Notes under the pieces: generated by a model
What the model was told of the DNA's origin: nothing
Seen by the model: the letters and a program-made list of their open reading frames with translations, nothing else
Databases searched by the model: none
Source: a virus
Lineage: Duplodnaviria; Caudoviricetes
Reading direction: 5' to 3' (one strand)
IMG/VR virus record: IMGVR_UViG_3300036803_000058
Location: 1-63,566 of that record
DNA length: 63,566 bases
In this document: in pieces, positions 5,458-56,353 of the stretch
How the letters are laid out: the number at the start of each line of letters is the position of its first letter
Position numbering within the stretch: position 1 is the stretch's first letter
Made by a program: the position numbers and the translations under genes

Positions 5458-6141
5458 CTAATGCCCGATCTCGGCAAGCGCCTGATCGCGCGCGAGGTTG
5501 AGTTCGCGCAGTCGGTTGGTGTCGGTGGCCGCCGCCTTGGCGAGCGAGCGATAGGCCACCTTGACGTCGTCGGGGGTGACGTCGGTGAGTGGCGGGAAGC
5601 GCAGCACGGCGCGCCACACCGCGCGGTTCTCGGCCGAGGGAGCAGGCAGTGCGTCATAGCCGGCAAAGGCCTGCTCGAGCGTTCCCACGCCGTAGCGGTC
5701 GATCCGCCGAATGGCCTCGATGTGACTGGCGACGGCGGCGATGTTCTGGGCCACCGTCAGCCAGCGATCGCACGCCAGCACTCTATCGTGGTCATTGAGG
5801 GTGAAGTAGACCGCGGCGCCGGGATCGGCGGGCTCGGCCCGGCCGCCCCTTGGTTCACCATAAGCGGTGAGCTCGACGTTGGTCGACAGGATCACGTCGT
5901 CGGCACCGAGACGATCGAGCTGATCGGAGAGGCGCTGGCGCGCGGTCGGCATGGTGATCGGCTTGGTGCCCGGCACGATCTGGTCTTCGCGGCGTTGGAG
6001 CGTCGAGTTCCAGGTCGAGCGGGTCGCCATGGTGGCCTCGCGCGCGGTGAAGCGGCTGCGATCTGCAGGGTTGGTGCGCTTCCAGAGCGGTGGCCAGACA
6101 AGGGGAAACTTGGTGACCTTCTTGGGCAGGTGGGAGGGCAT
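5458..6141 (-). CDS. Phage protein with C-terminal J-like domain lacking HPD
   Basis: FPLVWP, DPGAAVYF, ACDRW and AFAGYDALPAP motifs; WRAVL...VKVAYRSLAK...LNLARDQAL. Confidence 0.7.
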   Translation of the reverse strand: MPSHLPKKVTKFPLVWPPLWKRTNPADRSRFTAREATMATRSTWNSTLQRREDQIVPGTKPITMPTARQRLSDQLDRLGADDVILSTNVELTAYGEPRGGRAEPADPGAAVYFTLNDHDRVLACDRWLTVAQNIAAVASHIEAIRRIDRYGVGTLEQAFAGYDALPAPSAENRAVWRAVLRFPPLTDVTPDDVKVAYRSLAKAAATDTNRLRELNLARDQALAEIGH

Positions 6142-6180
6142 GAGGAGACCGCGCGCTGAGGGGGTTTGGGGCTGTGGGGA

Positions 6181-6210
6181 TTTTATGGTGCGGCGGGTAG
6201 GGGTTGTCAA
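6181..6210 (-). promoter_or_regulatory. Putative sigma70 promoter for the leftward operon
   Basis: Minus-strand TTGACA (6205-6210) followed 17-19 nt later by CATAAAAT. Confidence 0.4.
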
Positions 6211-6392
6211 GTAGGAAGTGTGGAAAAACGGTGACCCATATTTTTCAAGGGGCTAAGCACCGAGGGGGTCCCCCCACCCCTGTCCAGTACCGTTACCCGG
6301 TGGGTAACAGCTAGGCCGTTACCTACTGGGTAAAAGCCCAGACACTTAGCTATTAGTATGGGGCAATCCAGTCCCGCGAAAGGTAAAGTAAG

Positions 6393-7088
6393 ATGGCTAA
6401 GGACATTACGAAGATCGACAACCTGACTGACACGCAGGTTGACGCCAGCATCAAAGACTTGTGGAAGGCTGAAGCCGAGGGACAAGTCGCGATGCGGGAT
6501 ATCTGCTTGCGGGCCGCCGCTGCGACGCTGGCCGGCAAGTATCCCATCGGCGATATCACGGCCGTTGGAAAGCGTGTCTACACGCTGAGCGGCCGCGATA
6601 CCAGCGACGCGCGGTCCTTCTCGGCTCAGGCGAGCAAGATCGCAAAGACGATCAAGCTCGCGGCCCGTTGGGACAAGGCGGGGCTGCCGGTTCTGGAAGC
6701 GGCGTTCAGCGTCGCCGGAACCTACAACAACACGCTGGACTTGATCGGCTATATCAATGCCGCAACCAAGGACGCGAAGGCGCCGCCGACCGCCGCGCAA
6801 GTGTCGGATATCTGGATCAAGGGAAAGCCCAAGTCGGTTGCGAAGGAGAAGTCCAACGCGGACATGGGCGCGGAGGTGGTCGCACTCCTCCTGAAGCTCG
6901 TCGAAGCCGATCCTTCGGGCAAGGGCCTAAAGGCTGCGTTGACCGGCATGCAGGAATACACAAAGTTTGCCGGTCTCACGACCGCCGAGCAGAAGGCAGC
7001 GAAGATGCAGGCCAAGCGCGCCAGCGATATCACGGAAGCGCTTGCCATGATCGGCAAGAAGCCGAGCAATGGCGCCCAAGCCAACTAG
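6393..7088 (+). CDS. Hypothetical Ala/Lys-rich early protein (probable paralog of 14399-15148)
   Basis: 231 aa; first rightward gene; followed by a hairpin. Confidence 0.75.
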   Translation: MAKDITKIDNLTDTQVDASIKDLWKAEAEGQVAMRDICLRAAAATLAGKYPIGDITAVGKRVYTLSGRDTSDARSFSAQASKIAKTIKLAARWDKAGLPVLEAAFSVAGTYNNTLDLIGYINAATKDAKAPPTAAQVSDIWIKGKPKSVAKEKSNADMGAEVVALLLKLVEADPSGKGLKAALTGMQEYTKFAGLTTAEQKAAKMQAKRASDITEALAMIGKKPSNGAQAN

Positions 7089-7101
7089 TCACGACGAACA
7101 C

Positions 7102-7134
7102 CCCGCGGCCAGCATATGCTGGCCGCGGGATTTC
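7102..7134 (+). terminator. Hairpin terminator
   Basis: CCCGCGGCCAGC-ATAT-GCTGGCCGCGGG then ATTTC. Confidence 0.6.
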
Positions 7135-7223
7135 GTGCGTCTGGGCTCTGGCCGTTACCCACTAGGTAACGCCCATCGCCCCCGCATTTGAGACAGTGAA
7201 CACAACGGACGCAGGTGAGGACG

Positions 7224-7610
7224 ATGGCAACGTGGAATGAAATCATCGCGGGCGCTGACGGCACCACATACATAGGGCGCAATACGGACGGACGTAAGGT
7301 AAAGGTATTCGTTCCGGTTGACGGTCGGGCCAAGACACGGCAGTGGCTATGGGATCGCTTTCGCAAAGTGTGGATTGAGAAGATCATGGCAACGGGCGGT
7401 CATGTCACTTTGCCAAAGCCGGCCAAGGTTGCCAAGGATCAAGAGCTCTTGCCTGCACCGGATCGCTACGTTGTGGACTGGCAGTCCATTAGGAAGACAA
7501 AGGATGGGTACGTGCCGAACACACCTGAGCATACGAAGCGCGGAAAGCGCCTGCAGATGGGTGAAGTGCGGGGGCAGCGGGGTAATCGGGGGACTGCAGG
7601 CAACGTTTAA
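7224..7610 (+). CDS. Hypothetical protein
   Basis: GAGG RBS; 128 aa. Confidence 0.6.
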   Translation: MATWNEIIAGADGTTYIGRNTDGRKVKVFVPVDGRAKTRQWLWDRFRKVWIEKIMATGGHVTLPKPAKVAKDQELLPAPDRYVVDWQSIRKTKDGYVPNTPEHTKRGKRLQMGEVRGQRGNRGTAGNV

Positions 7611-7830
7611 TGATGTGTCAACGTAGTTTCATCATAGTATTCACAATGATTTATAACGCTGATCTATATAGCTTATCCTCACATATAAAGTTATTACTTC
7701 TCTGTGTTATAGAGAGAGTTATATTATGGGAGCAAGTTTGAGCAACATGATTGGCGCGCGTGCACACCCCTACACTACCACCCCCGACCTAGAGTACGTG
7801 TATAACCGCCCTTTCTGGCATAGTTTCTAC

Positions 7831-7860
7831 TTGACAATAGGGTTAAGTCATTGATATCAT
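7831..7860 (+). promoter_or_regulatory. Sigma70 promoter with extended -10
   Basis: TTGACA-N18-TATCAT preceded by TGn, in an AT-rich intergenic region. Confidence 0.6.
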
Positions 7861-7946
7861 TGGGCGATTAAATTAAAGTTCGTACTTCACTAGCACTTTC
7901 GGCGCCATAGTTATTACCCACTGGGTAAAATAAGGAGACAATGTAA

Positions 7947-8111
7947 ATGGACGAACTAGCCTTACTCATCCTACTTGAAGTGACATGGATGCTCAATCCC
8001 TATCGCTCACGCACCAACATCGCGACCGACGCGATCCTCACCATCAACCGCCGGCATATGATCGAGCAAGCCGGTTACAAGCTGCGCGGCGATGTTGCCG
8101 CGTTCAGATAA
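7947..8111 (+). CDS. Small hypothetical protein
   Basis: TAAGGAG RBS; 54 aa starting MDELALLILLE. Confidence 0.5.
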   Translation: MDELALLILLEVTWMLNPYRSRTNIATDAILTINRRHMIEQAGYKLRGDVAAFR

Positions 8112-8124
8112 GGAGACAAACGTC

Positions 8125-8424
8125 ATGATCTACATGTCATCAGGCATCAACTGGAACTGGTACTTGCGCCTTGCCTCGATTGCAGGCGACACCTGCGTGA
8201 TCGACTACGAGTGGCGCGTTCATCGCTCGCAGGACCAGCCTGCAGGCATCCTCGGCAACTACCATATCGTCGAGCAGCCCGGCACTGGCCCTGACAATCG
8301 CATGGCGATTGCCGTCGATATCACCGTCGGCCAGGATCGCAAGCGCTACAAGCTGCAGGATCCGATCCCGCGTTGGAGCATACCGACCCCTGACAACCGC
8401 GCCCCTCTCGCTGTGAGACAGTGA
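8125..8424 (+). CDS. Hypothetical protein
   Basis: TAAGGAG RBS. Confidence 0.55.
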   Translation: MIYMSSGINWNWYLRLASIAGDTCVIDYEWRVHRSQDQPAGILGNYHIVEQPGTGPDNRMAIAVDITVGQDRKRYKLQDPIPRWSIPTPDNRAPLAVRQ

Positions 8425-8475
8425 TTGCAACGGACGTTACCTAGTGGGTAACATATCAAATAGGAGCAGAATATC

Positions 8476-8751
8476 ATGTTAATCAGACGCCGCGACCCGA
8501 TCCTCAACGGTCGGCCAAACCTCTTCCTCATGATCCTGGGCGCGCTGTTCGCGCCCAGTCCAGCCACTGCAGCCCAGCGAGCGCGGCGCCATGCGCGCAG
8601 CATGGCCGCTCGACGCCGCATCTATCCGTCATCGGTTATAGGAACCGTCCTGCCAGCACCGGGATCGCTCCTGAGCCGCACCGCACGCGACCTGATCAGC
8701 CCTGTGCCCAACGTCATTCGTAGCCTACGCTACCCGCACTTGAACGACTGA
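8476..8751 (+). CDS. Hypothetical protein
   Basis: TAGGAG RBS; flanked by palindromes. Confidence 0.5.
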   Translation: MLIRRRDPILNGRPNLFLMILGALFAPSPATAAQRARRHARSMAARRRIYPSSVIGTVLPAPGSLLSRTARDLISPVPNVIRSLRYPHLND

Positions 8752-8805
8752 TCCGACCCGTTACCCACCGGGTAACGACCACGCTTCTTGGGGACCATCA
8801 CCACT

Positions 8806-9132
8806 ATGCCGACCTTCATCCCGCCCATGCCAACGCCACGTAAGCCAGAGCGGCGCCTCGGTGCGCAAACCAACAGGCGGCCGACAATCCGCCTGATGAT
8901 GCCGACCAGAACCACCACGCCGGACGGCAAGACCAACGACTTCAAATCGTTCCGCTCAGCCTGGCTGTTCCACTTCTACGGCCAGCCCACCTGCACCAAG
9001 GGCTTGCGCGAGCTCGCCCCCATCTACCGTGCCGACAGATCGCTGATCTACAACGGCGTCATCTTCACGTTCCTCCCCCCAACGGTCGCATCCGCTCCCT
9101 CTGGGGGCCCCGATACCATGAAGGACAAGTGA
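8806..9132 (+). CDS. Hypothetical protein
   Basis: ORF in the early cluster. Confidence 0.5.
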   Translation: MPTFIPPMPTPRKPERRLGAQTNRRPTIRLMMPTRTTTPDGKTNDFKSFRSAWLFHFYGQPTCTKGLRELAPIYRADRSLIYNGVIFTFLPPTVASAPSGGPDTMKDK

Positions 9133-9136
9133 AACC

Positions 9137-9487
9137 ATGCTCCGCTTCCTGATAGGCCTCGCCATACTCCCGTTCGCCATGATCGGGTTGATACTGGCCA
9201 TCTACATCCTGATGATCGTCGTCGACCCAAGCATCGCTCACGCCGCTGACTACCTGCAGAACCACAAGCTCGAACCTTGGAACCCACAATCTGGCGTGAA
9301 GATTTACAACGCGCCCAAGCCCTACATCCCGAGCTACACGACACCGACGCCAGCACCGCGACACGAACTGTCGCCGCTGATCACCAAGCACAACTCGTTC
9401 TTCGGCTACACGGAATACTGCGACGCGACGGGCTGCAGTTCACCGGTCTGGGATCGCGGCGACACCACCAATGATGAAGAGGACTGA
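9137..9487 (+). CDS. Hypothetical membrane protein
   Basis: Hydrophobic N-terminus. Confidence 0.5.
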   Translation: MLRFLIGLAILPFAMIGLILAIYILMIVVDPSIAHAADYLQNHKLEPWNPQSGVKIYNAPKPYIPSYTTPTPAPRHELSPLITKHNSFFGYTEYCDATGCSSPVWDRGDTTNDEED

Positions 9488-9490
9488 CCA

Positions 9491-9994
9491 ATGACCGACA
9501 ACGACACCCTTCTCGGCTGGTTCGAGAACATCCTCGAACGCCTGCAACCGATGGCGCTCGCCATGATCAACGACGAGACCGAGCATGTGCCGATGTTCCT
9601 CGTCTACTCGTCCGATCGACCGCACAAGGTGGCGGCGATACCGCTGTTCGAGCTCAACAACGACGTCAAGGACGCGGCGTTCGGCGTGCTGCGCTCGCTC
9701 GGCAGCAGCGACGGCGTGCACGCCGCGATCCTCGTGACCGAGGCATGGACGGTCGAGCGCAGCACCGACGACCCCCGAGCCAGCGACATGACCAGATCGC
9801 TCGAGTTCGAGCCCGATCGGCAGGAGACTATGATCTGGAATTGCGTCAGTCACGGCCAGCAACTGATGGCGATGCGCAAGATCGACCGCACCACCAAGGG
9901 CTGGGGCGGTGAGCTCAAGATCATCGACCCGTCCAAGGACATGATGAGCGGCCGCATGGTGGCCGACGACAAGGATACGTCCACCAGGCACTAA
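9491..9994 (+). CDS. Hypothetical protein
   Basis: 167 aa; GAGGA RBS; genome-typical codon usage. Confidence 0.7.
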   Translation: MTDNDTLLGWFENILERLQPMALAMINDETEHVPMFLVYSSDRPHKVAAIPLFELNNDVKDAAFGVLRSLGSSDGVHAAILVTEAWTVERSTDDPRASDMTRSLEFEPDRQETMIWNCVSHGQQLMAMRKIDRTTKGWGGELKIIDPSKDMMSGRMVADDKDTSTRH

Positions 9995-10061
9995 CCAAGA
10001 CAGTGATCGCAACGTTACACCCATCCGTTACCCGGTGGGTAAAACAAGGAGATGTAGGCAA

Positions 10062-10370
10062 ATGAATATCATGGCAATGAACAGAACCAACGACGGCAGC
10101 CTTGCCGTCCACCGTATCGGCCGGCCGCAAGCCGGCATCCTCTACACGATCTGCTTCGATACGACCCGCTTAACGGACATCGCCAGCTACGAGGTGCTGT
10201 TCCCGATCCAGGCCAGGCATGGCGTCAGCGTTCTCAAGGACGGCAAGCGCGTGCTGCCGGGCACCAAGCACTACAAGCTAGCGCGCCTGCTGGTCGAGGC
10301 GTTCACTGCAGGCGAAGCGCTCGGCCTCGCCACCCATGTCATCGCCCCTTCCCGCAAGAAGGCGGCCTGA
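10062..10370 (+). CDS. Hypothetical protein
   Basis: AAGGAG RBS; bracketed by palindromes 10028 and 10374. Confidence 0.6.
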   Translation: MNIMAMNRTNDGSLAVHRIGRPQAGILYTICFDTTRLTDIASYEVLFPIQARHGVSVLKDGKRVLPGTKHYKLARLLVEAFTAGEALGLATHVIAPSRKKAA

Positions 10371-10447
10371 CCGTTACCCGGTGGGTAACAAGCGTAGCGT
10401 AAGCGTAGAGTACAGACTATAACTCAACTAGGAAGAGCGAGAACGAA

Positions 10448-11188
10448 ATGCTAAGACGTATGATGCTGATCGCGGCAGCCGCCGCGCTCATGGCAGTCAG
10501 CCTGCCGCTCGATGTAATGGCTAAGGGAGGCGGTGGTGGATCTGGCGGTGGCTCTGGCGGCAGTGGCGGTGGGTCTGGTGGTGGCGGCGCTGGTGGTGGG
10601 TCCGGTGGCGGATCGGGCGGTGGCGGCAGCGGCGGCGGCTCTGGTGGCGGCGGTGGTGGTTCGGGCGGTGGTGGAGGCGGTGGAGGTTCCGGTGGAGGCT
10701 CTGGTGGTTCTGGTGGCGGTGGGTCTGGTGGTGGCGGCGGTGGCTCGGGTGGCGGGTCCGGCGGCGGCTCTGGCGGTGGTGGCGGGTCTGGTGGCGCTGG
10801 CGGCGGGTCCGGTGGCGGCGGCGGATCCGGCGGTGGTTCAGGCGGGTCCGGTTCTGGTTCCGGCGGAGGCGGCGGCTCGGGCGCTGGCGGCGGTGGCGCT
10901 GGGTCTGGTGGCGGTGCTGGCGGCGGCAGCAGCGGCGGCAGTGGCGGTGGCGCTGGTGGTGGAGGCTCGGGGGGCGGGTCGTCCGGTGGTTCTGGCAGCA
11001 GCGGCGCTGGTGCTGGCAGCGGCGCTGGCTCTGCTTCTGGCAGCGCTTCTGCTGGCAATGGATCAACAGGCTCGAGCATCGACCCAGGCAACAACGACGT
11101 CGGCGCCTACTTCCGGCATCGTGACGCGCTTACACGCTATCGACTGAGCGTACCGTCCAACCAGCAGGGGCAGGCACGCCAGCCCTAA
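10448..11188 (+). CDS. Exported Gly/Ser-rich low-complexity protein
   Basis: Signal-peptide-like N-terminus, then about 180 residues of GGGS/GGA repeats, then a short unique C-terminus. Confidence 0.75.
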   Translation: MLRRMMLIAAAAALMAVSLPLDVMAKGGGGGSGGGSGGSGGGSGGGGAGGGSGGGSGGGGSGGGSGGGGGGSGGGGGGGGSGGGSGGSGGGGSGGGGGGSGGGSGGGSGGGGGSGGAGGGSGGGGGSGGGSGGSGSGSGGGGGSGAGGGGAGSGGGAGGGSSGGSGGGAGGGGSGGGSSGGSGSSGAGAGSGAGSASGSASAGNGSTGSSIDPGNNDVGAYFRHRDALTRYRLSVPSNQQGQARQP

Positions 11189-11191
11189 CAC

Positions 11192-11390
11192 GAACGACCC
11201 CGTGCCTTTTCTAAAGGGGTAGGCACGGGTACTTGGCGGGCGTCGCCATGTCCCCCGGCGACGCCCGCTCTTTTTATTCATAATTCATGAACCACCCCTG
11301 CAGCATCGCAACATCTCCCCCGATGGTAGGGCGAGTGCAGGGTACTTGGGCGGGCGTCGCCACCTCCCCCGGCGACGCCCGCTCCTCTTT
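11192..11390 (+). ncRNA. Two tandem candidate sRNAs (stem, TACTTGG linker, terminator hairpin with C-rich loop)
   Basis: Units 11192-11275 and 11289-11390 share GAAC.ACCCC, GGGTACTTGG and CGGGCGTCGCC..TCCCCCGGCGACGCCCGCTC; the first stem differs in sequence but still pairs. Confidence 0.55.
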
Positions 11391-11486
11391 ATCCATTTTA
11401 TTCGGACAGTGGTTTGGCGTACTTACCCAGTGGGTAAGTCGAGCGTAAGCGTAGCGTATGATGTTAACATCAACTAGGAGCAAACT

Positions 11487-12017
11487 ATGTGTGAAGGATC
11501 TATCCACGTTGCTCACCGCAAGGCAACCACGAAGGAGTCCCTCGTGGTCAGGACCATCCCCGGACACGGGCTCAAGGGGTACTATCCCGCCGAACCGACC
11601 AGCAAGGACAACAGGCTGGTCTGCACCCTGCGTCGTCACAACGACGTGCGCATCGCCGAGCTGCATCTCGTGCAGGAAGTGAAGGCCCAGCTGGGCGCAG
11701 CCATCCAGAAGTACGATGGCAAGAAGGACCTCAAGGTGTCGTTGATCCACAACGGCTCCGACTTCATCGAGCTCGAGCCGGGCGTCCTGCTGCCGCTCGT
11801 CTACGTGCAGGACGGCGTGCGGGTCGAGATCGGCCAGCCCGTCATCACCGGCGATGCCGGCATGAAGGCCGTCGAGCAGGCGCTCGATGAGCAGACCAAG
11901 ACGACCACTTCCAAGGTCGGCAAGGTCCTCAGCATGACGCGCGAGGCGATCCGTTCGCGCGCGCGTCGGGCAGCGGCTGCCGCCCAGCGCCGACCGCTGG
12001 CGACCAACCGCGTCTAA
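11487..12017 (+). CDS. Hypothetical protein
   Basis: TAGGAG RBS; 176 aa. Confidence 0.7.
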   Translation: MCEGSIHVAHRKATTKESLVVRTIPGHGLKGYYPAEPTSKDNRLVCTLRRHNDVRIAELHLVQEVKAQLGAAIQKYDGKKDLKVSLIHNGSDFIELEPGVLLPLVYVQDGVRVEIGQPVITGDAGMKAVEQALDEQTKTTTSKVGKVLSMTREAIRSRARRAAAAAQRRPLATNRV

Positions 12018-12033
12018 TCTTTCACCCACGAAC

Positions 12034-12057
12034 GGGAGCGACCTTCGGGTCGCTCCC
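12034..12057 (+). terminator. UUCG-loop hairpin
   Basis: GGGAGCGACC-TTCG-GGTCGCTCCC. Confidence 0.6.
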
Positions 12058-12089
12058 ACTCGCTCAACCCATTACCCACGGGGTAACTC

Positions 12090-12296
12090 ATGTACGTCAT
12101 CCGCGGCATCGACGATCGAAAGCACGAGGTCTCGGTCGTGCACAACGGCACGTTCATCCCGATCCAGACCTTCCAGGTGCGCGCCAATGCCTTCAGCTTC
12201 GTGTCGTTCCTGAACGGCAACGCGCGCATCGAGCTGGTCGATCTGGGCGAGGCCGACCTCAACAACACCACCTACCAACCCGCATCCCTGCGCTAA
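12090..12296 (+). CDS. Hypothetical protein
   Basis: ATG directly after palindrome 12072. Confidence 0.55.
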   Translation: MYVIRGIDDRKHEVSVVHNGTFIPIQTFQVRANAFSFVSFLNGNARIELVDLGEADLNNTTYQPASLR

Positions 12297-12306
12297 GGAG
12301 CAACCG

Positions 12307-12534
12307 ATGTATCCTCTGATTGACTTCCGCGAGCTCTACTACTGGATCGTGCTCGAGATCTACTACCAGCGCTACCTGACGCTGTGTCTCAAGTTTGAGG
12401 TGCCGCCGCGCGACCGCCGCGGCTTCGCCGATGCTGGCACCGAGGAGAACCCCAACTTCGCCCCGATGATCCGCGCCCAGCTTCTGAGCCGCTGGCCGGG
12501 CGAGAGCCTGTCGAGGGCCAGCCAATGGCACTGA
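12307..12534 (+). CDS. Hypothetical protein
   Basis: TAAGGAG RBS. Confidence 0.55.
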   Translation: MYPLIDFRELYYWIVLEIYYQRYLTLCLKFEVPPRDRRGFADAGTEENPNFAPMIRAQLLSRWPGESLSRASQWH

Positions 12535-12812
12535 ACCGAACCGTCACCGGCGCCATCATCGACATCACCCGCCTCGCCAACGGCGATCGCGACAAGGCGA
12601 CCCGTCAGCTGCAGAGCGTCTGCTTCGTTGCGGCGTGGGCCGGCATGATAACAGCCGAGGACCGCGACCGGGTCTTCGAGCTCTGGCTCAAGTACGGCAA
12701 GTACAACCTGCCGGCCACCTGCCGGCACACCCTGCGCCGGGTGATCCGCGACCTGATCGAGGAAGGTCAGGCGATGAAGCTGCAGGCAAAACCCTTGTTA
12801 CCCACCGGGTAA
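12525..12812 (+). CDS. Hypothetical protein
   Basis: Stop codon is the TAA of palindrome 12798. Confidence 0.55.
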   Translation: MALNRTVTGAIIDITRLANGDRDKATRQLQSVCFVAAWAGMITAEDRDRVFELWLKYGKYNLPATCRHTLRRVIRDLIEEGQAMKLQAKPLLPTG

Positions 12813-12841
12813 CTGTTGTATATGTCCAATGGGAGCAAACA

Positions 12842-13363
12842 ATGCATAAGAAACGGTGTATATTTGGGTTCGTCATGGTCCTGTCATGCGTCTTATCTGT
12901 CCCTCCCCCATCAGGGGCCGCCGATCTCTCGGGTACGATCCGGGTGGTCGACGGCGACTCGCTGGTGGTGGGTGGCGAGCGCGTCCGCCTCGAAGGCATC
13001 GACGCGCCCGAGATGGGCCAGACATGCGAACGGTTAAAGCTCACGTACGATTGTGGTCAGGAGGCGCGCGACCTCATGGTGATGCTGGTGAGCGACGGCT
13101 CGGTCCACTGCCGCGTCAACGAACGCGACATTTACCAACGATGGTTGGGACAGTGTTTTGGTCGCGACCCGATTACCGGCGAGGCGACCAACCTCAACCT
13201 GCAGATGGTCGGGCGCGGCTATGCCGTGGTCTACCACGGCAGGAACCACGGCACGCCCGAGCTCCTGCAGGCCGAGCGTGACGCACGCGAGGCCAGGCGT
13301 GGCATCTGGGCTGGCCGCTTCGACTATCCCTGGGACTGGCGCCGGAACCATCCGCACCACTGA
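12842..13363 (+). CDS. Thermonuclease (SNase-like) with signal peptide
   Basis: VVDGDSL, RVRLEGIDAPE, DIYQR, NLQMVGRGYA and ARRGIWAG motifs. Confidence 0.9.
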   Translation: MHKKRCIFGFVMVLSCVLSVPPPSGAADLSGTIRVVDGDSLVVGGERVRLEGIDAPEMGQTCERLKLTYDCGQEARDLMVMLVSDGSVHCRVNERDIYQRWLGQCFGRDPITGEATNLNLQMVGRGYAVVYHGRNHGTPELLQAERDAREARRGIWAGRFDYPWDWRRNHPHH

Positions 13364-13377
13364 GAAGGTGTTACCCA

Positions 13378-13665
13378 ATGGGTAAATGCACATTCGTCGA
13401 CGGCGACGACCCCGACCTCGAGACCAAGTATCCGTGGCTCAAGCGCGTGCCACCCGAGTGGCAGGCCTATCACCTGATGCGGGCGCGCCAGTGGAAGCAT
13501 CAGATCAAGCTGATCCGCGAGCAGGCCCGGTTCGAGGCCGCGATCGAGGATTTCATCGCACAACTGGAACAACAACGGCGCGACCGGCGACGGCGCGCAC
13601 TTTTGTCAGGCACGGCTTTTGCTCTCTTGGCCGTGCTTGTCATGTGGGCAGGGAGCGTAATCTAG
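13378..13665 (+). CDS. Hypothetical protein with C-terminal TM segment
   Basis: ATG lies within palindrome 13371. Confidence 0.55.
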   Translation: MGKCTFVDGDDPDLETKYPWLKRVPPEWQAYHLMRARQWKHQIKLIREQARFEAAIEDFIAQLEQQRRDRRRRALLSGTAFALLAVLVMWAGSVI

Positions 13666-13681
13666 GGACATGGTGAACTAA

Positions 13682-14056
13682 ATGATCGACTCAGGCTTTG
13701 GCATGAGCCTGCTCTACGGGCTTGTGCTGGCAATGGTGTGCGGCTCCATCGCGCTTGTCGCACGCTATACCGACCGCGCTCCGTGGCTGCGCGCGGTCTA
13801 CGACTATTCGGGCTTCATCATCGTGTTGACGCCCGTCGCAATCCTGGTGTGGCATATCACCTACGTGCAGGAGCAACGCCATGAGCGCCGCCGTAACGCC
13901 GCAACCGAAGTGCCGATGGTGCGAGAAGACAACGCACCGGAGCGAGCAATGCCCGAGGATCAGTGCCCTCGAGTTCTATCCGCAGCTGTCGCCCGAGCAG
14001 CCGGTGCAGCTGAAGCGTGTCGAGTTTCACCACCCGCATCTGTCATCATCCAATAG
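13682..14056 (+). CDS. Hypothetical two-TM protein (3' part overlaps the next ORF)
   Basis: Two hydrophobic segments. Confidence 0.45.
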   Translation: MIDSGFGMSLLYGLVLAMVCGSIALVARYTDRAPWLRAVYDYSGFIIVLTPVAILVWHITYVQEQRHERRRNAATEVPMVREDNAPERAMPEDQCPRVLSAAVARAAGAAEACRVSPPASVIIQ

Positions 14057-14114
14057 GTCTGCCGGCCGGGTTCCTACATCCCCGGTCGATCAGCGGAGGG
14101 AGCCCGGTCAGTAG
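13881..14114 (+). CDS. Small CCHC zinc-knuckle-like protein
   Basis: CAGGAG RBS; CRWCEKTTHRSEQC fits CX2CX4HX4C. Confidence 0.55.
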   Translation: MSAAVTPQPKCRWCEKTTHRSEQCPRISALEFYPQLSPEQPVQLKRVEFHHPHLSSSNRSAGRVPTSPVDQRREPGQ

Positions 14115-14315
14115 CCCGCTACCCCGGTCCATCGGTGCGCAGAGACGCCGATGGATTGGCCATGCGGTTAGCCGGGCTCCTTCCGAGCGAGCTTCCCTGC
14201 CGGGCACAGTTAGACCGCTTGGCTAGGCAGGGGTCAGGGGAGGGTCAGGGCGAGTAGCCCGCTAAAGTGATCTTGGGAAGACGCACTGATGCGGTTAGTC
14301 CTGACCCAACCTCCC
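14062..14315 (+). ncRNA. Candidate structured ncRNA: four hairpins, two sharing a conserved core
   Basis: AGTAGCCCGCTA...ATGCGGTTAG at 14110/14162 and 14253/14289, each enclosed by a different paired stem; G-U pairs point to the + strand. Confidence 0.6.
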
Positions 14316-14338
14316 GTTACCCTGTGGGTAATCAGCCC

Positions 14339-14366
14339 TTGACACAATAAGGGCATAGTGTATAAT
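14339..14366 (+). promoter_or_regulatory. Consensus sigma70 promoter
   Basis: TTGACA-N16-TATAAT, 7 nt downstream of palindrome 14317. Confidence 0.8.
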
Positions 14367-14398
14367 AGTAATACTATAGCAACTAGAAAGGCAATCCC

Positions 14399-15148
14399 AT
14401 GTCGACACAACCACCGGCACCGGGCGACAACAGCGCCAACGCCTACAAGCTATTCCTCGACCAGATGCGCGAGCTTGGGCGCGTCAAGGGTCGCGGCGCC
14501 AACGCCCAGATCGAGGCAGCCGTGCAGTGCGTCGAGCGCGCCAGCGAGGGCATCATCGACGTCAAGAACACCGAGGAAGTATACGATGCCTTCTTGGGCG
14601 GCGAGACTCAGGCCGGCGGCGCCACCGGCACGGCCAACGAGGAGAAATCTGACCGGACAGTGCGCATCAGCGAGCTCCGCCAATTCGTCAAGATGGGCGG
14701 CATCAAGACGATCGACCCGGTGGCTTTGATCCACAACGCCGTGACGTGGATCAGGAACGCCAAGCAGGTCGAGAAGCTGGGTAAAGGCGTCAAGGTCTAT
14801 TCGGCGATGGTCGACGTGGCGCGCGCCCAGAACAAGATCCCCGAGCATGCGCTCACCGAGGACGAGTGCATCGCCGCGGCGCAGCCCAAGGCCGGCCGCG
14901 ACAAGGACGAGGCCGACTACTGGGGTCAGGTGCGCGACCGGATCGACAAGATCGAGAAGAAGTTCGGCACCAGCGACGAGATCACCAGGATACGCGATCA
15001 GGTCCAGCTGGTGATCGACGATCTGGGCGGCACCAGTGCCGACCGCAAGAAGGCCGAGAAAGCGGCGAAGGAACTGGCCAAGCTGCAGGGCAAGACCCCG
15101 GCAGCCGCGCCAGCGCCGGCCGGCAAGAAGGGCAAGGGGAAGAAGTAG
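14399..15148 (+). CDS. Hypothetical Lys/Ala-rich protein (probable paralog of 6393-7088)
   Basis: 249 aa behind the strong promoter; palindrome right after the stop. Confidence 0.8.
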   Translation: MSTQPPAPGDNSANAYKLFLDQMRELGRVKGRGANAQIEAAVQCVERASEGIIDVKNTEEVYDAFLGGETQAGGATGTANEEKSDRTVRISELRQFVKMGGIKTIDPVALIHNAVTWIRNAKQVEKLGKGVKVYSAMVDVARAQNKIPEHALTEDECIAAAQPKAGRDKDEADYWGQVRDRIDKIEKKFGTSDEITRIRDQVQLVIDDLGGTSADRKKAEKAAKELAKLQGKTPAAAPAPAGKKGKGKK

Positions 15149-15206
15149 TTACCCACCGGGTAACGTGAACTGCTGAGGGGCAGGTCCAACAGAGAGCGAG
15201 GGCAAT

Positions 15207-15401
15207 ATGAAAGTAGTCATAATCTATGCGGAGCTTCCGCATGTCTCGGAGATCTCGGTGAACCGGGAAGGCGTGATCGTGACGATCGACAAGTCACGGG
15301 TCGACAGCGGCTTCCTGGCACCCCTTATGACGTTCGAGATCGCAAGAGGAAGAGTGCAATGGCAAAAGGAGTATCCCGATGTCCCTACAAATCCCGATTA
15401 A
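15207..15401 (+). CDS. Hypothetical protein
   Basis: GAGG RBS. Confidence 0.45.
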   Translation: MKVVIIYAELPHVSEISVNREGVIVTIDKSRVDSGFLAPLMTFEIARGRVQWQKEYPDVPTNPD

Positions 15402-15579
15402 CAAGATCGCCTTGATCAGCTTCGAGTCGGCTGATCAGGCGGTCGCCATCCTGACCGATTGGATCAAGCTCAACGAGGACAACATGGATACACGGGTCTG
15501 GCATAGCGTTGATCAGGTGCGCACGGCGCTCGGCAAGCTGATGGACGATGCCGACGTGATCATGCTGGAGGACAACTGA
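15379..15579 (+). CDS. Hypothetical protein
   Basis: AAGGAG RBS. Confidence 0.55.
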   Translation: MSLQIPINKIALISFESADQAVAILTDWIKLNEDNMDTRVWHSVDQVRTALGKLMDDADVIMLEDN

Positions 15580-15681
15580 TGGACTGGAAGGGAAGCGACG
15601 TGTTCTGGGGCTGGGTCGTCGGCCTGCTGATGACCTTCGCGATCTGTGGCATCGCCATCGCCATCAACCATGGGAGATAAC

Positions 15682-15942
15682 ATGCGTACGTTCCTGTTCA
15701 TCGTGGCTCTCTGCATCTTTGCTTTCTGGGTGGTGCCGTGGCTGAAGTTGCGCAAGGTGGCCCGGTGGGCTGCCTTGCACGAACACATCCGCCCCAAGCG
15801 TATCCTGCTGTACGGGCCGGATGCCTGTGCTGACGTCGCCATCGCCGGCATGAAGGCGATCATCTGGCTCAGCAAGCTGGCGCACCGTCATCCCGTTATG
15901 ATGGCCGCCAACGTCAACGATCCGAAAGGCTACCGCTCATGA
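15682..15942 (+). CDS. Hypothetical membrane-anchored protein
   Basis: GGGAG RBS; N-terminal TM segment. Confidence 0.5.
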   Translation: MRTFLFIVALCIFAFWVVPWLKLRKVARWAALHEHIRPKRILLYGPDACADVAIAGMKAIIWLSKLAHRHPVMMAANVNDPKGYRS

Positions 15943-16196
15943 TCACCAAGATCTTCACGCCGCTGCAGGTGGTCCATCTGTGGGGCCACCAGTTCGGCCC
16001 CTGGCGTAGTCCCTTCACGGTCGGCGACGAACATATGCCGATGCCGATGCATCCGTTCACCTGCCCCAACCGGGGCGATCATCCAGAGCTCGCCGGTGAC
16101 AAGGGCGTGCTCGTGCCGACGGTCCGCGGCTGGATATGTCCGTTCTGCGACTACACGCAGGACTGGGCACACGACTTCATGATGGGCCACCGCTAG
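15939..16196 (+). CDS. Small Zn-binding hypothetical protein
   Basis: HPFTCPNRGDH...GWICPFCDYTQDWAH. Confidence 0.6.
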   Translation: MITKIFTPLQVVHLWGHQFGPWRSPFTVGDEHMPMPMHPFTCPNRGDHPELAGDKGVLVPTVRGWICPFCDYTQDWAHDFMMGHR

Positions 16197-16246
16197 TTTT
16201 ACCCAGTGGGTAAAGGAGAAGTTACATGTCAAATGGAGACACATAG

Positions 16247-16705
16247 ATGGCCAAGCCACGCAAAAAGATCGTGCTCGATCTGCCCGTCAAGGACGCGAAA
16301 CGAGATCTCGTCCTGCATATAACCCCGGCAGACATCAAGGGCAGCAAGCCGGGCGATGGCGATTACTGCGCCGTCGCCAACGCGCTCTGCCGGCAGGAGA
16401 AGTTCAAGACGGCAAGGGTCCACAAGGGTGTGACCTACGTCATGCACACCGATGGCACGGTCACGCGCTACAAGACCCCGCAGTCGCTCTACGTCGAGCT
16501 TCTGATCTTCGATCGCGGTGGTCGTATGGAGCCCGGCGAGCACAAGCTGCAGGCGCCGCGGGGCAGCGAACGCCTGGGCCATCACGAGAAGCCAAAGGGA
16601 CCAAAGGCCAGGACCGGCAAGCCGGTCCGGGCAGTCCATTTGGTGAAGAGCGTCCGCGAGGACGCGCCCAAGGGGATCCAGTCCCTGAAGGCTTTGTTCG
16701 AGTAA
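16247..16705 (+). CDS. Hypothetical protein
   Basis: GGAG RBS; 152 aa. Confidence 0.7.
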   Translation: MAKPRKKIVLDLPVKDAKRDLVLHITPADIKGSKPGDGDYCAVANALCRQEKFKTARVHKGVTYVMHTDGTVTRYKTPQSLYVELLIFDRGGRMEPGEHKLQAPRGSERLGHHEKPKGPKARTGKPVRAVHLVKSVREDAPKGIQSLKALFE

Positions 16706-16724
16706 ACAACAAAGGAGAGAAGCA

Positions 16725-16901
16725 ATGACGGAACAGGAGATCGAGACCGCCGTCCAGCAAGCGCAGGCGGCCATCGAAGAGCTCTGCTTGCCCGGCAAGA
16801 TGACGCCTGCCGAAGCCAAGGACTTTCTCGAGCGGGTGATCGAGCAGTGCCAGTCCTCGGTCGAGGCGCTGATCGAGGAGAACGAAGACCTCGAGGCCTG
16901 A
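16725..16901 (+). CDS. Small acidic protein
   Basis: AAGGAG RBS; starts MTEQEIETAV. Confidence 0.55.
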   Translation: MTEQEIETAVQQAQAAIEELCLPGKMTPAEAKDFLERVIEQCQSSVEALIEENEDLEA

Positions 16902-16908
16902 TTACCCG

Positions 16909-17154
16909 GTGGGTAAATCGGCCAATGGCAATCCGAACCTCGCAGCTATCCGCCGCACGGTGCGAGAGTTGGGCGGTACGATCACGGCGAGGGATGCGGG
17001 CGGCCGCACCCTTCGCCTCACCATCAAGACCAAACAGGGTGCAGTGTTCACGTACGGCGTAATCCGCCGCAAGGTGGACGACATGAAGCTGGCCGGTTGG
17101 CTCCGGCAGGAGTTCAACCGGGCCAACGCCGCGCACAAGAGGAGGAAGAAGTAA
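16909..17154 (+). CDS. Small basic protein
   Basis: GTG start within palindrome 16902. Confidence 0.5.
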   Translation: MGKSANGNPNLAAIRRTVRELGGTITARDAGGRTLRLTIKTKQGAVFTYGVIRRKVDDMKLAGWLRQEFNRANAAHKRRKK

Positions 17155-17408
17155 TGCCGATCTACAAAGCGACGCTTCAAGTCCTGGTGCTGGCTGAGGC
17201 CGACAGCGAAGGGCAACTTCGCGAAAGGATCAACGACATGACCCTCGGCCAGATCGGATACGAGATGGACGATGGCGACTGGACGGGCAGCCGCTTCATC
17301 GCGGATATCGTCCCGGTTCCCCCTGAACAAGTCACCGACCTGCTGGAGGAGGTGGGCACTGACGCCAACTTCTTCGGCCGCCTCGATGACAATGACCGAC
17401 CCTTCTAA
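17154..17408 (+). CDS. Hypothetical acidic protein
   Basis: TAATG coupling. Confidence 0.55.
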   Translation: MPIYKATLQVLVLAEADSEGQLRERINDMTLGQIGYEMDDGDWTGSRFIADIVPVPPEQVTDLLEEVGTDANFFGRLDDNDRPF

Positions 17409-17421
17409 GAAACGAACCAAG

Positions 17422-17445
17422 GCTCCGGGCAGCAATGCCCGGAGC
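17422..17445 (+). terminator. GNRA-loop hairpin
   Basis: GCTCCGGGCA-GCAA-TGCCCGGAGC. Confidence 0.5.
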
Positions 17446-17489
17446 TTCGGACAGTGACAGCGTTACCTCCTGGGTAAAATGAGGACACG

Positions 17490-18590
17490 ATGTATATTCG
17501 ACAACTCCAAGAAGAGCTTCCCTACTTCCTTGACGCCCGCGTGCCGGTCGAGGTCGGCTCCAGCCCCGGTGCCGGCAAGAGCGAGTCGATCGACCAGTTG
17601 GTCGAGCGATTGTCCCGGCGCGACGGTTTCGAATGGGGACTGGTCAAGGTGTTCATCGCCACCTTGAGCCCGGTCGACCTGCTGGGCTTCATGGTGCCGG
17701 GCTATGTCGATATCACCAAGCCCGACGGCACGATCGAGAAGGTGCGCATCAGCGAGTTCACGATGCCGCCGTGGATGATCTCGACCAAGGGCCGGCCGAT
17801 CAACGAGTACCGCCGCGCCATCATCGTGTTCGAGGAATGGGACAAGGGCGAGCCCGACGTCAAGAAAGCCTCGGCCGAGATCATCCTGAACGGCCGGGCC
17901 GGCAAGTGGGCGGTGCACGACGGCATTGCCCGCATCATGCTGGTCAACCGCACGGTCGATCGAAGTGGGTCCACCAAGAACTTCGACTTCATCATCAACC
18001 GGCGATGCGAGCTCACGGTGTCGGCCGAAGTGGAAGGCTGGCTGGGCTACGCCGACATCGCCAAGGTAGACCCGGTGTTCACCTCGTTCGCCGCCAAGTT
18101 CCCCGAAGTCGTGTTCAACAACGAGATCCCCGAGAAGCAGGGCCCGTTCTGCACGCCGCGCTCCTTGGTCAAGCTCAGCCAGGTGTTACCCAGACGGGTA
18201 ACCGACCAAGGCAAGATGAAGAACGACAGCATCGCCACCGAGATCGCCCACGGCACGGTCGGCACCGCGGCAGCGATGCAGCTGATGAGTTGGATCAAGC
18301 TGCGACAGGATACGCCGGACTGGGCCGATATCATCCGCGCGCCCGACCGCTGCCCGGTGCCGGACAAGCCCGATGCCCGGCTGATGACCTGCTACGAGTG
18401 CGCCCATCACGTCGACGAGAAGACGGTCGGCCGGGCGATCACCTACATCCAGCGCATGAGTGCGGAGTACGCCGTGACGTTCGCGCAAGCCGCCACTCGA
18501 CGGAACCACAACCTGATCAACTCCGACGCCATGCTGAAGTGGGTCGAGAAGAACGCCAGCCTCCTGAACGCGATCGGTGGTGCGCGATGA
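17490..18590 (+). CDS. MoxR-like AAA+ ATPase
   Basis: Walker A SSPGAGKS, Walker B IIVFEEWD, INRR arginine finger, TPRS sensor. Confidence 0.85.
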   Translation: MYIRQLQEELPYFLDARVPVEVGSSPGAGKSESIDQLVERLSRRDGFEWGLVKVFIATLSPVDLLGFMVPGYVDITKPDGTIEKVRISEFTMPPWMISTKGRPINEYRRAIIVFEEWDKGEPDVKKASAEIILNGRAGKWAVHDGIARIMLVNRTVDRSGSTKNFDFIINRRCELTVSAEVEGWLGYADIAKVDPVFTSFAAKFPEVVFNNEIPEKQGPFCTPRSLVKLSQVLPRRVTDQGKMKNDSIATEIAHGTVGTAAAMQLMSWIKLRQDTPDWADIIRAPDRCPVPDKPDARLMTCYECAHHVDEKTVGRAITYIQRMSAEYAVTFAQAATRRNHNLINSDAMLKWVEKNASLLNAIGGAR

Positions 18591-18880
18591 CGGAAGACCT
18601 CGACACCACCCGCACACCGGCCAACTTCTGCCTGAAGTGCGGCTATCTGATCGACGCCGCGTCGAGCATTCGGCAGCCGGATGCCAAGCCCAAGGCAGGC
18701 GACGTCTCTATGTGCATCAACTGCGGTGCCTTGAGCCGCTTCAGGGTCGACCTGACGCTCGAGCCGCTGGGCCAGCAGGGGCTCGAAGGACTGGACGCGC
18801 AGGCGAAGCGCATCATCAGCGTAGGGCAAGCCTACATCTGGGCACGAGGACCCATCCACAAGAGGGAGACCAAGCAATGA
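18587..18880 (+). CDS. Zn-ribbon hypothetical protein
   Basis: CLKCG and CINCG motifs. Confidence 0.55.
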   Translation: MTEDLDTTRTPANFCLKCGYLIDAASSIRQPDAKPKAGDVSMCINCGALSRFRVDLTLEPLGQQGLEGLDAQAKRIISVGQAYIWARGPIHKRETKQ

Positions 18881-19095
18881 CGGACAAGCAGATCGTCACG
18901 TACTTCCATTGTCGGCGATGCCTGATCGAGAGGCCGCCCCATACCAGCATGTCCGAATGGGCGCGGCTCGAGATGGGTCTCACCCAGAGAGGCATGCAGG
19001 TCTGGTGCCTGCGCCACAACATCAACGTCGTTTTGCTCGAGGACGCCCCGATGGTCGTCGTTGCCAACGACAAAGGAGAGGACGATGGATCGTAA
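18877..19095 (+). CDS. Hypothetical protein
   Basis: YFHCRRC...QVWCLRH; ATGA coupling. Confidence 0.55.
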   Translation: MTDKQIVTYFHCRRCLIERPPHTSMSEWARLEMGLTQRGMQVWCLRHNINVVLLEDAPMVVVANDKGEDDGS

Positions 19096-19294
19096 ACCCG
19101 GAAAGGTGAGTAACTGGGTCGAGCCGGCGCCGACCAAGCAGCCGGGCTGGGAAATCCGCCACGACGACGAGCTCTGGTTCACCGGGCGGATGATCCTGCA
19201 GAGCAACTTCCGGCCTGACATCAAGCGTGTCGACCGCGAGCGCATGCTCGCGGCGATCGCCCGATGCCTTAACATGCAAGGAGTGGTGCCATGA
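19085..19294 (+). CDS. Hypothetical protein
   Basis: GAGG RBS. Confidence 0.5.
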   Translation: MDRKPGKVSNWVEPAPTKQPGWEIRHDDELWFTGRMILQSNFRPDIKRVDRERMLAAIARCLNMQGVVP

Positions 19295-19521
19295 AGCCGA
19301 GCTTCGCAATGCTGATGGACGACCAGCAGGGCCGCATGCTGCGGCTGGTCCTGCACGCAGGTAGGGTGGGCCTGATACAGGACGCGCTCACCAGCACCAT
19401 GCCGGACGACCTCAAGAAGTTTTCCAAGAGCTCGGTCGAGTTCGCCGAGGACATCATCAGCAATATCGACGCGGTGCTCGGCCATGTGCCGTGGCCGGAC
19501 GAACCGAGCGATGCGGGGTAA
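19291..19521 (+). CDS. Hypothetical protein
   Basis: ATGA coupling. Confidence 0.5.
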   Translation: MKPSFAMLMDDQQGRMLRLVLHAGRVGLIQDALTSTMPDDLKKFSKSSVEFAEDIISNIDAVLGHVPWPDEPSDAG

Positions 19522-19564
19522 TGTGTATAATAGGAATATTACCCACCGGGTAACAGGAGGACCC

Positions 19565-20053
19565 ATGGCTAACACCAAGCTGACCTCAAGACAGGTGATC
19601 GCCATCCACGCCCTGATGGCGCAGCACTGCAAGAAGGGCGACGACGGCTTTGCCAACTATGACGAGGGCTGGGACGACAACCGCATCATGAAGGATGTTG
19701 TCAATCCCGAGCTTGATCGGTCGATCCCGATCACGTCGGTTGCCCGGCTGCGCATGGAGAACTTCGGCCGCATCAGGAAAATCGACCCGATGGCCGATGG
19801 CCGGGTCGCTGCCCTCGAGAAACGTCTCGTCGAGCTCGAAGAGGACCAAAAGGGGCTGCTCGACTGGATTACGCGCGTCGCCCGCTTGCTGCAGGACAAA
19901 TACCCGAACCAGCGAAATCTCTATGCCCCGCCGCAGGGCCGGCCGCGATCGGTCCCGCCGATGGGCATGGGCGTTCGCCATCCGCGTTCTGGTCCACCAA
20001 CCGATGACGCCGAGACTTTGATTGGCGAAAAACTGAAAGGGTTGCTCAAGTAA
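19565..20053 (+). CDS. Hypothetical protein (possibly DNA-binding, coiled coil)
   Basis: AGGAGG RBS after TATAAT (19526) and palindrome 19539. Confidence 0.65.
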   Translation: MANTKLTSRQVIAIHALMAQHCKKGDDGFANYDEGWDDNRIMKDVVNPELDRSIPITSVARLRMENFGRIRKIDPMADGRVAALEKRLVELEEDQKGLLDWITRVARLLQDKYPNQRNLYAPPQGRPRSVPPMGMGVRHPRSGPPTDDAETLIGEKLKGLLK

Positions 20054-56314: not shown

Positions 56315-56353
56315 AGACGGCCAGTTACCCACCGGGTAACCGGCCGCCTGTCT
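56315..56353 (-). terminator. Hairpin after the capsid gene with the palindrome at its apex
   Basis: CGGCC-A-GTTACCC-ACC-GGGTAAC-C-GGCCG. Confidence 0.45.

Follow-up and report, generated by a model that had tools for sequence, protein, structure and literature searches.

IMG/VR record IMGVR_UViG_3300036803_000058 is a complete phage genome of 63,566 bp with direct terminal repeats, analysed here over its whole length and referred to as the window. Between the last open reading frames (ORFs) of its early gene block and a promoter of the sigma-70 type lies a non-coding stretch of about 280 nt that contains two structured RNA units, each built of an outer stem (P1), a core split into two halves, and an inner hairpin (P2). 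These two units are members of a real, covarying RNA family of uncultured soil phages, for which a role as a terminator or attenuator hairpin carrying a docking module is tentatively proposed. Positions at the locus are collected in Table 1.

Table 1. Features in and around the stretch with the two RNA units, numbered from the first base of the window.
Feature	Position	Strand	Description
Upstream coding region	13682-14114	+	Overlapping candidate ORFs 13682-14056 (124 aa) and 13881-14114 (77 aa); G+C content at third codon positions (GC3) examined
Hairpin H0	14063-14088	+	8 bp, 10-nt loop with CCUAC, 5 nt 5′ of unit 1; minimum free energy (MFE) fold
Unit 1	14094-14185	+	Covariance-model match 14085-14196, 67.8 bits, E 3e-12
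Unit 1, 5′ side		+	P1 5′ arm 14094-14108, CAG bulge, 5′ core AGUAGCCCGCUA 14110-14121
Unit 1, inner part and 3′ side		+	Long P2 hairpin 14122-14161, 3′ core AUGCGGUUAG 14162-14171, P1 3′ arm 14172-14185
Hairpin H2	14194-14232	+	Between the units; counterpart of H0 for unit 2; MFE fold and half-region alignment
Unit 2	14238-14315	+	Covariance-model match 14228-14323, 80.9 bits, E 4e-15
Unit 2, 5′ side		+	P1 5′ arm 14238-14250, CG and AG bulge region, 5′ core 14253-14264
Unit 2, inner part and 3′ side		+	P2 14265-14288 with GGGAAGAC loop, 3′ core 14289-14298, P1 3′ arm 14299-14315
Palindrome GTTACCC-N3-GGGTAA(C/T)	14317-14333	+	Directly 3′ of unit 2
Sigma-70-type promoter	14339-14366	+	TTGACA-16-TATAAT, 12/12 match, AT-rich island, ahead of the next gene
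Downstream gene	14399-15148	+	249-aa lysine-tailed protein; function not assigned

Two RNA units and their family

The 5′ half of the core, AGTAGCCCGCTA (12 nt), and the 3′ half, ATGCGGTTAG (10 nt), are each identical in unit 1 and unit 2, a duplication that had been noticed in a first-pass annotation made from the sequence alone, and no further exact copy of AGTAGCCCGCTA or ATGCGGTTAG is present elsewhere in the 63,566-bp record. Either half by itself is not rare when one or two mismatches are allowed; what goes beyond chance is the occurrence of both exact halves together within covarying stems, a pattern that recurs in 25 further sequences. The same annotation called the enclosing stems fully different, which is accurate in that P1 and P2 differ in sequence between the units and keep their pairing in both, but "fully" is too strong: an alignment of the two half-regions shows that the outer 5′ arms have TCAG(C/G)GGAGGG in common, and AGACGC is present in both inner loops. 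The MFE fold of the + strand over 14057-14330 consists of four consecutive hairpins (-143.8 kcal/mol, z -4.7, with 0 of 200 shuffles as good) and reproduces the layout described earlier, in which two extra hairpins alternate with the units; the - strand of the same interval folds more weakly (-129.5 kcal/mol, z -3.2). The inner hairpin of unit 1 has about 15 bp in the fold, and a hairpin comparable to H0 stands directly upstream of the motif in many family members.

Copies of the motif were found by pattern scans and with a covariance model, and the loci that carry them are labelled L003, L004 and so on. An exact-core scan of IMG/VR returned 8 loci and a looser one 18, among which only L018 was a new true member, the rest being without an enclosing stem; the looser pattern returned 23 loci from metagenome contigs. 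In 185,579 prokaryote species genomes, one per species, it matched 2 loci, both stemless and therefore chance matches, so that no copy was found there. The covariance model R1, built from 7 sequences, recovered 25 copies in 24 sources, all at E < 2e-7, with a second copy within one locus in the window only. Scans in which either the GCC/GGU triple or both core ends were freed gave two variants only, L073 (GGUCAG) and L111 (AUCAGCC), and the family as a whole comprises 27 distinct sequences in uncultured phage and metagenome contigs, with L006/L009, L004/L023, L032/L036 and L029/L041 as close pairs. Four other phage records, three of them rated complete, have one copy each, and the window alone has two. 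Searching 50,697 phage records with unit 2 by blastn gave chance matches only, and a second model, R2, had no match in RHph_TM27A, phiM6 or RHph_N3_13. Comparison of DNA contigs showed that a related strain has both units identical and differing flanks; in X4, a contig from a related strain, the core of unit 2 is unchanged and the P1/P2 positions 14287, 14302 and 14304 differ. A more distant strain keeps the core and has a changed P1 and P2.

Covariation was measured in alignment A3, which holds 25 sequences and 26 pairs, or 635 pair cells, with shuffling of the 3′ letters as the control. Standard pairs fill 95.1% of cells compared with 71.9% after shuffling, both sides change in 18 of the 26 pairs, and the covariation score of 0.589 (0.174 when shuffled) was reached by 0 of 500 shuffles; sliding the structures by 1-3 columns lowered it to 0.07-0.17. 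All four P2 pairs change on both sides. The seven pairs of the core helix are invariant, partly by construction, since the scans fixed these pairs; freeing the GCC/GGU triple in scans brought no new member. Across the family there are 103 G-U cells and 7 A-C cells, and on the opposite strand no more than 80% of cells would form pairs. Because G-U cells outnumber A-C cells to this extent, the folded molecule is taken to be RNA of the gene-sense strand and not DNA, as the first-pass annotation had proposed for the + strand. The structured RNA that it had put forward is supported, and it covaries in homologs.

The module has a constant anatomy. In every copy P1 measures 12-15 bp; its 5′ arm is rich in G, and a closing C-G or U-G pair follows. 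Inside it follow a 3-nt bulge, (C/G/A)AG, then UAGCC paired with GGUUA, a bulged C, and GC paired with GC; next inward comes an internal loop of UAA opposite GAU, with a few variants, and then P2. In 17 of the 27 copies P2 is a simple stem of 4-7 bp with a purine-rich loop of 5-9 nt that ends in ...AGA before the closing C, and in the remaining copies it is longer or branched; the distance between the core halves ranges from 19 to 44 nt. The core variants L073 and L111 break the U-A or A-U "pair" beside the bulge, and for that reason the bulge-side end of the helix may belong to a larger non-canonical loop. The inner loop may resemble the UAA/GAN motif, and the AGUA stretch may resemble bulged-G modules. 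As a whole, each unit folds into a single uninterrupted but irregular hairpin that lacks a junction, and no pseudoknot is supported.

Some sequence features recur upstream of the core. CTACC was observed in 5 of 21 upstream regions, compared with 0.8 expected, and ACCTA in 4, compared with 0.5, at 12-75 nt upstream, and these strings often lie in the loop of a hairpin abutting P1; GUCUACC is also present 3′ of the hairpin behind the capsid gene of the window (about 56310). A possible pseudoknot between CUAC of the upstream loop and GUAG of the core would have 4 bp only, and the CTACC enrichment is not universal. A leader peptide starting from a conserved AUG was considered and rejected, as ACG stands at this place in 5 of 27 copies.

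The family matched no known one, in agreement with the first-pass annotation. Rfam 15 gave 0 matches at the gathering score over the whole window and, at E up to 10, three weak matches over 13900-14450, none of them on the units; in particular, no CRISPR-DR family of Rfam, which a CRISPR-repeat mimic (RNA anti-CRISPR) would be expected to resemble, matched the units at that threshold. A full-text literature search for the core strings returned nothing relevant.

Genomic context, terminator slots and possible hosts

The motif occupies several kinds of gene boundary. In L004, L006 and L023 it follows the major capsid gene and precedes a tail-fibre-like gene, in L007 and L008 between an ATPase region and a 119-aa gene, and in L003 before a 130-aa gene and the small terminase, and in about ten loci related to the window it stands beside homologs of the 249-aa protein, of a 152-aa protein or of a third family of small proteins, and it can stand on either side of a given gene. 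No neighbour gene is common to the family loci. Flanking ORFs supported by homology (the capsid, 249-aa, 152-aa and ATPase families) are always on the motif strand, and in most loci the stop codon of the upstream gene is 4-57 nt before the model span. Of 23 copies, one has a sigma-70-like promoter upstream and three have one downstream, and no promoter of the motif's own was found. The match with the gene strand, the nearby upstream stop and the rarity of upstream promoters together indicate that the RNA is made as the tail of the upstream message. A U-tail, defined as at least 5 U in the 8 nt just 3′ of P1, is present in 8 of 22 non-redundant copies, compared with 4.3% of random segments from the same loci (binomial p 2e-6).

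Among cultured phages, those nearest to the window belong to the RHph_TM27A group of Rhizobium phages, and their portal protein is 55% identical to that of the window. The capsid protein of L004 is 68% identical to that of RHph_TM27A, and the window capsid, encoded at 56374-57366 on the - strand, is 80% identical to that of L004. Behind its capsid gene, RHph_TM27A has a hairpin formed by a GTTACC palindrome and then a G+C hairpin followed by CUUUCUUUUAU, a classic terminator; in the window, the capsid gene is followed by a 16-bp hairpin around a palindrome of its own and then by a Shine-Dalgarno (SD) sequence and AUG. Behind the gene for the 249-aa homolog of RHph_TM27A, EVB29_028, there is a G+C hairpin and then UUUUAUUAU, and the same slot in L018, L024 and L040 holds the motif. 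The motif of L035 ends with a tail of the RHph_TM27A type, UUUUAUUA, and those of L029 and L041 end with the shorter UUUUAUU. By this comparison, the motif replaces an ordinary terminator in two independent gene slots, a setting on which the first-pass annotation did not remark, and it is mainly for this reason that P1 and its tail are read as a terminator or attenuator.

Only one protein, an M15 endolysin, is common to all five motif-bearing phage records, and a tail protein is common to four of the five; as both are host-linked genes, their sharing suggests similar hosts. Relatives of the portal and capsid proteins suggest that these hosts are Alphaproteobacteria, and relatives of the endolysin span other groups. 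A terminator for a phage RNA polymerase was also considered: such a polymerase (PF00940) was not found in any of the five records, which is a weak negative because the control genomes were also empty. The invariant core would fit a partner that does not co-evolve with the phage, such as a small molecule, a protein of the host or its transcription machinery, because phages with little else in common have an identical core and because strains keep it when flanks, P1 and P2 change.

At the locus in the window, the upstream coding region has a weak holin-like match, below the cut-off, and its 77-aa candidate ORF contains a CxxC...C stretch and stops at a UAG within the core of unit 1. The promoter behind the units is the best promoter match within 6000-20000, and because it serves the next gene and lies after the units, they form the end of the upstream transcription unit. 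The palindrome between unit 2 and this promoter is a separate boundary element outside the RNA family. Copies of GTTACCC-N3-GGGTAAC are located at gene boundaries in both genome halves, at 12797-12813, 15148-15164, 19537-19555 and 56324-56340 in addition to the one in Table 1, the last of them within the post-capsid hairpin of the window. Related GTTACC/GGTAAC palindromes are found 3′ of the motif or of terminators in L024, L040, L025 and Rhizobium phage RHph_TM27A, and the recurring palindrome may serve these phages as a common operator or form another hairpin at gene boundaries.

The 249-aa protein encoded downstream belongs to no Pfam or PHROG family, yet it is conserved, with EVB29_028 and 25 homologs in a metagenome protein collection, and homologs adjoin the motif in L018, L024, L040 and L042, either before or after it. 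Among wider relatives of its gene, a scan with the single protein found none and a profile scan found the contig of L018 only. Elsewhere in the window, ARAGORN called a tRNA-Asp with the odd anticodon "atc" at 26115-26191, within the DNA polymerase ORF 24884-26761, which is probably a false call, and a 2475-aa ORF at 36194-43621 on the - strand has no Pfam family and a PHROG match, phrog_37402 (function unknown), over its last 800 residues only.

Proposed role and competing explanations

The explanation preferred here, and held tentatively, is that the family represents terminator or attenuator hairpins topped by an invariant module on which a conserved host factor or ligand would dock. The RNA would act in cis, as the tail of the upstream message, and the long G+C-rich P1, often with a U-rich run, would serve as an intrinsic terminator or attenuator and also as a hairpin that protects the 3′ end at the gene boundary. 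In place of a plain hairpin top there would be the invariant module of about 25 nt, with its 3-nt bulge, 5-bp helix with bulged C, 2-bp step and UAA/GAU loop, and this module, followed by P2 with its usually purine-rich ...AGA loop, would most likely be the docking site of a conserved factor acting in trans, whether a host protein or a small ligand. The docked factor could then set the read-through into the next gene or the lifetime of the upstream message. In the window, the two units together with the two plain hairpins would bring the early gene block to an end immediately ahead of the region's strongest promoter. The reading starts from the observed structure, strand, position, U-tails and slot equivalence with plain terminators, from which we infer termination itself as well as the existence and identity of a partner.

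Several observations weigh against this explanation. The segments that served as the U-tail control come mostly from coding DNA, where T is scarcer than between genes, and 14 of the 22 copies, including both units of the window, have no clear U-tract. In L004, L006, L007, L008, L029 and L032, an SD sequence and a start codon follow P1 at a distance of about 5-25 nt, so that termination in those copies must be incomplete and some transcription must read through. The slot equivalence is drawn from one cultured lineage. A plain terminator does not need an invariant core, the role of which we purely infer, and no partner was found among the proteins of the five phage records, where the M15 endolysin alone is common to all. 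Finally, a very stable P1 of 15 bp gives little room for switching.

If the module binds a factor or ligand, the family would show in phages a kind of regulation that resides within the terminator hairpin, a design which to our knowledge is otherwise represented by one bacterial riboswitch class only, and it would offer a compact, portable part of about 60 nt for the control of read-through. It is well suited to experiment, with 27 natural variants, clear covariation and an invariant core, and the plain terminators at the same two slots in cultured Rhizobium phages are natural negative controls. Even on a modest reading, the family shows that conserved extra domains, overlooked by ordinary annotation, can form part of phage terminators.

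A rather unlikely alternative to such a cis-acting terminator is a stable RNA acting in trans, in which the motif is a 3′ fragment of the message and its module sequesters a host protein, or mimics the target of one, such as a defence protein, an RNA chaperone or a nuclease. The single copies in four other phage records, set in differing gene neighbourhoods, are what a movable cassette would leave, an identical core is present in phages whose only other shared genes are host-linked, namely that of the endolysin and, in four of the five, that of the tail protein, and the very stable P1 would protect such an RNA. Absence from the 185,579 prokaryote species genomes would make it a phage invention; the same search, however, found no host RNA with the core at such spacing, which speaks against mimicry of a host gene, and the lack of a promoter of the motif's own in the scan also counts against this reading. 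There is also no systematic likeness to the 23S, 16S and 5S rRNA of E. coli. Mimicry of rRNA, suspected for the peptidyl-transferase region of 23S, was rejected after 24 motif regions and 120 control regions had been compared with rrlH, rrsH and rrfH, with up to 3 mismatches allowed in the core halves, and the matches were at chance level. One stretch stood out: 14 nt of the upstream hairpin of L031 (2753-2766) are identical to 2611-2624 of E. coli 23S rRNA, in the 3′ arm of helix 73. With an E of 0.002 for one of 24 queries this identity is probably due to chance; L035 has a hairpin similar to the upstream hairpin of L031, with compensatory changes.

An antitoxin-mimic RNA, another suggestion of the first-pass annotation, is disfavoured, as tandem copies occur in the window only. 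The features of a type III antitoxin of the ToxI kind are lacking: the units differ outside the core, each of the four other phage records has one copy, and no toxin family was found among the neighbour genes.

A bolder form of the terminator explanation, unlikely as it stands, would make the module a new aptamer or catalytic core that senses a conserved host signal, either a small molecule or a protein of the infected cell, and gates read-through between gene blocks. If true, it would be a phage-specific, protein-free switch for timing or counter-defence, spread horizontally among unrelated phages with apparently similar hosts.

It is less probable again that the motif represents a new class of small self-cleaving ribozyme, or the site of a host endonuclease, that cuts polycistronic messages at gene boundaries. 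An invariant core in internal loops, freely covarying flanking helices and a semi-conserved distal loop form the pattern of small ribozymes, and the intercistronic position, where the next start codon often comes 5-25 nt after the element, would suit a cutting site. Tandem copies, as in the window, are seen for phage ribozymes too. However, none of the Rfam families for the hammerhead, twister, twister-sister, pistol, hatchet, HDV-like and hairpin ribozymes matched the units at E up to 10, the continuous irregular hairpin offers neither a junction nor a supported pseudoknot, a 15-bp G+C-rich P1 would keep the cleavage products together, and the natural variants L073 and L111 alter letters of the core.

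A riboswitch with a terminator-embedded aptamer, in which a small molecule such as a nucleotide signal of host state changes the efficiency of termination, is improbable. The architecture, in which conserved loops are set into a terminator stem, has a precedent in the HMP-PP riboswitch (PMC6478431), core invariance across unrelated phages is typical of aptamers, and the tandem units of the window resemble tandem riboswitches. The genes downstream do not, however, point to a single pathway, being tail-fibre-like, 119-aa, 249-aa, and 130-aa with the small terminase, P1 is too stable for an obvious alternative fold, and no riboswitch of Rfam matched. Very unlikely is a selfish or relic insertion, a short mobile sequence that lands in terminator loops and has no phage function of its own: the outer stems vary as local terminators do around an unvarying inner part, and the sites are scattered, but P2 covaries around a fixed core, which points to selection acting on the folded RNA, neither a transposase nor other machinery accompanies the motif, and the core is identical between strains with differing flanks. 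A signal at the DNA level (cruciform, operator or origin element) is strongly disfavoured, since its adjacency in the window to the promoter and the recurring palindrome stands against the excess of G-U over A-C cells, an orientation that is always that of the genes, and the variable spacing of the core halves.

Relation to known systems

Two groups of phage RNA hairpins invite comparison. The antiterminator RNAs putL and putR of HK022 act on the transcribing polymerase of the host and need no phage protein for this; like the present family, they are built from irregular hairpins whose bulges are conserved and occur in one or two copies per genome. The put sites lie just downstream of early promoters, whereas the motif lies at gene 3′ ends and before promoters, and only one copy of 23 has a promoter-like site in the 200 nt upstream of it; model R2 had 0 matches at E up to 10 over the whole HK022 genome. 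The RNase III processing hairpins of T7 are irregular and intercistronic, have internal loops, and leave a stabilising 3′ hairpin on the upstream message. T7 has about ten RNase III sites per genome, which are not known to need an invariant 25-nt core, whereas phages of the family have one or two copies of the motif.

On a larger scale, the 2023 survey by Fremin, Bhatt and Kyrpides predicted 10,006 candidate structured RNAs in IMG/VR (PMC10690425). These candidates are also covarying phage RNAs obtained by comparison within IMG/VR, including terminator-like and cis-regulatory ones, and the family may stand unnamed among them.

An architectural counterpart is the HMP-PP (thiS) riboswitch, which is termed a "terminator-embedded aptamer" (PMC6478431) and which likewise has its conserved binding module within the terminator stem, not upstream of it. 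The family differs from this riboswitch in that it has no match to an Rfam sequence or model and no consistent gene association, and in being confined to phages. With the intrinsic terminators of RHph_TM27A it shares two slots and the placing of a G+C-rich hairpin immediately 3′ of a gene, in the sense orientation. In ordinary terminators the loop is short and free and no sequence is conserved, whereas members of the family carry an invariant module of about 25 nt and, on top of it, a second covarying hairpin.
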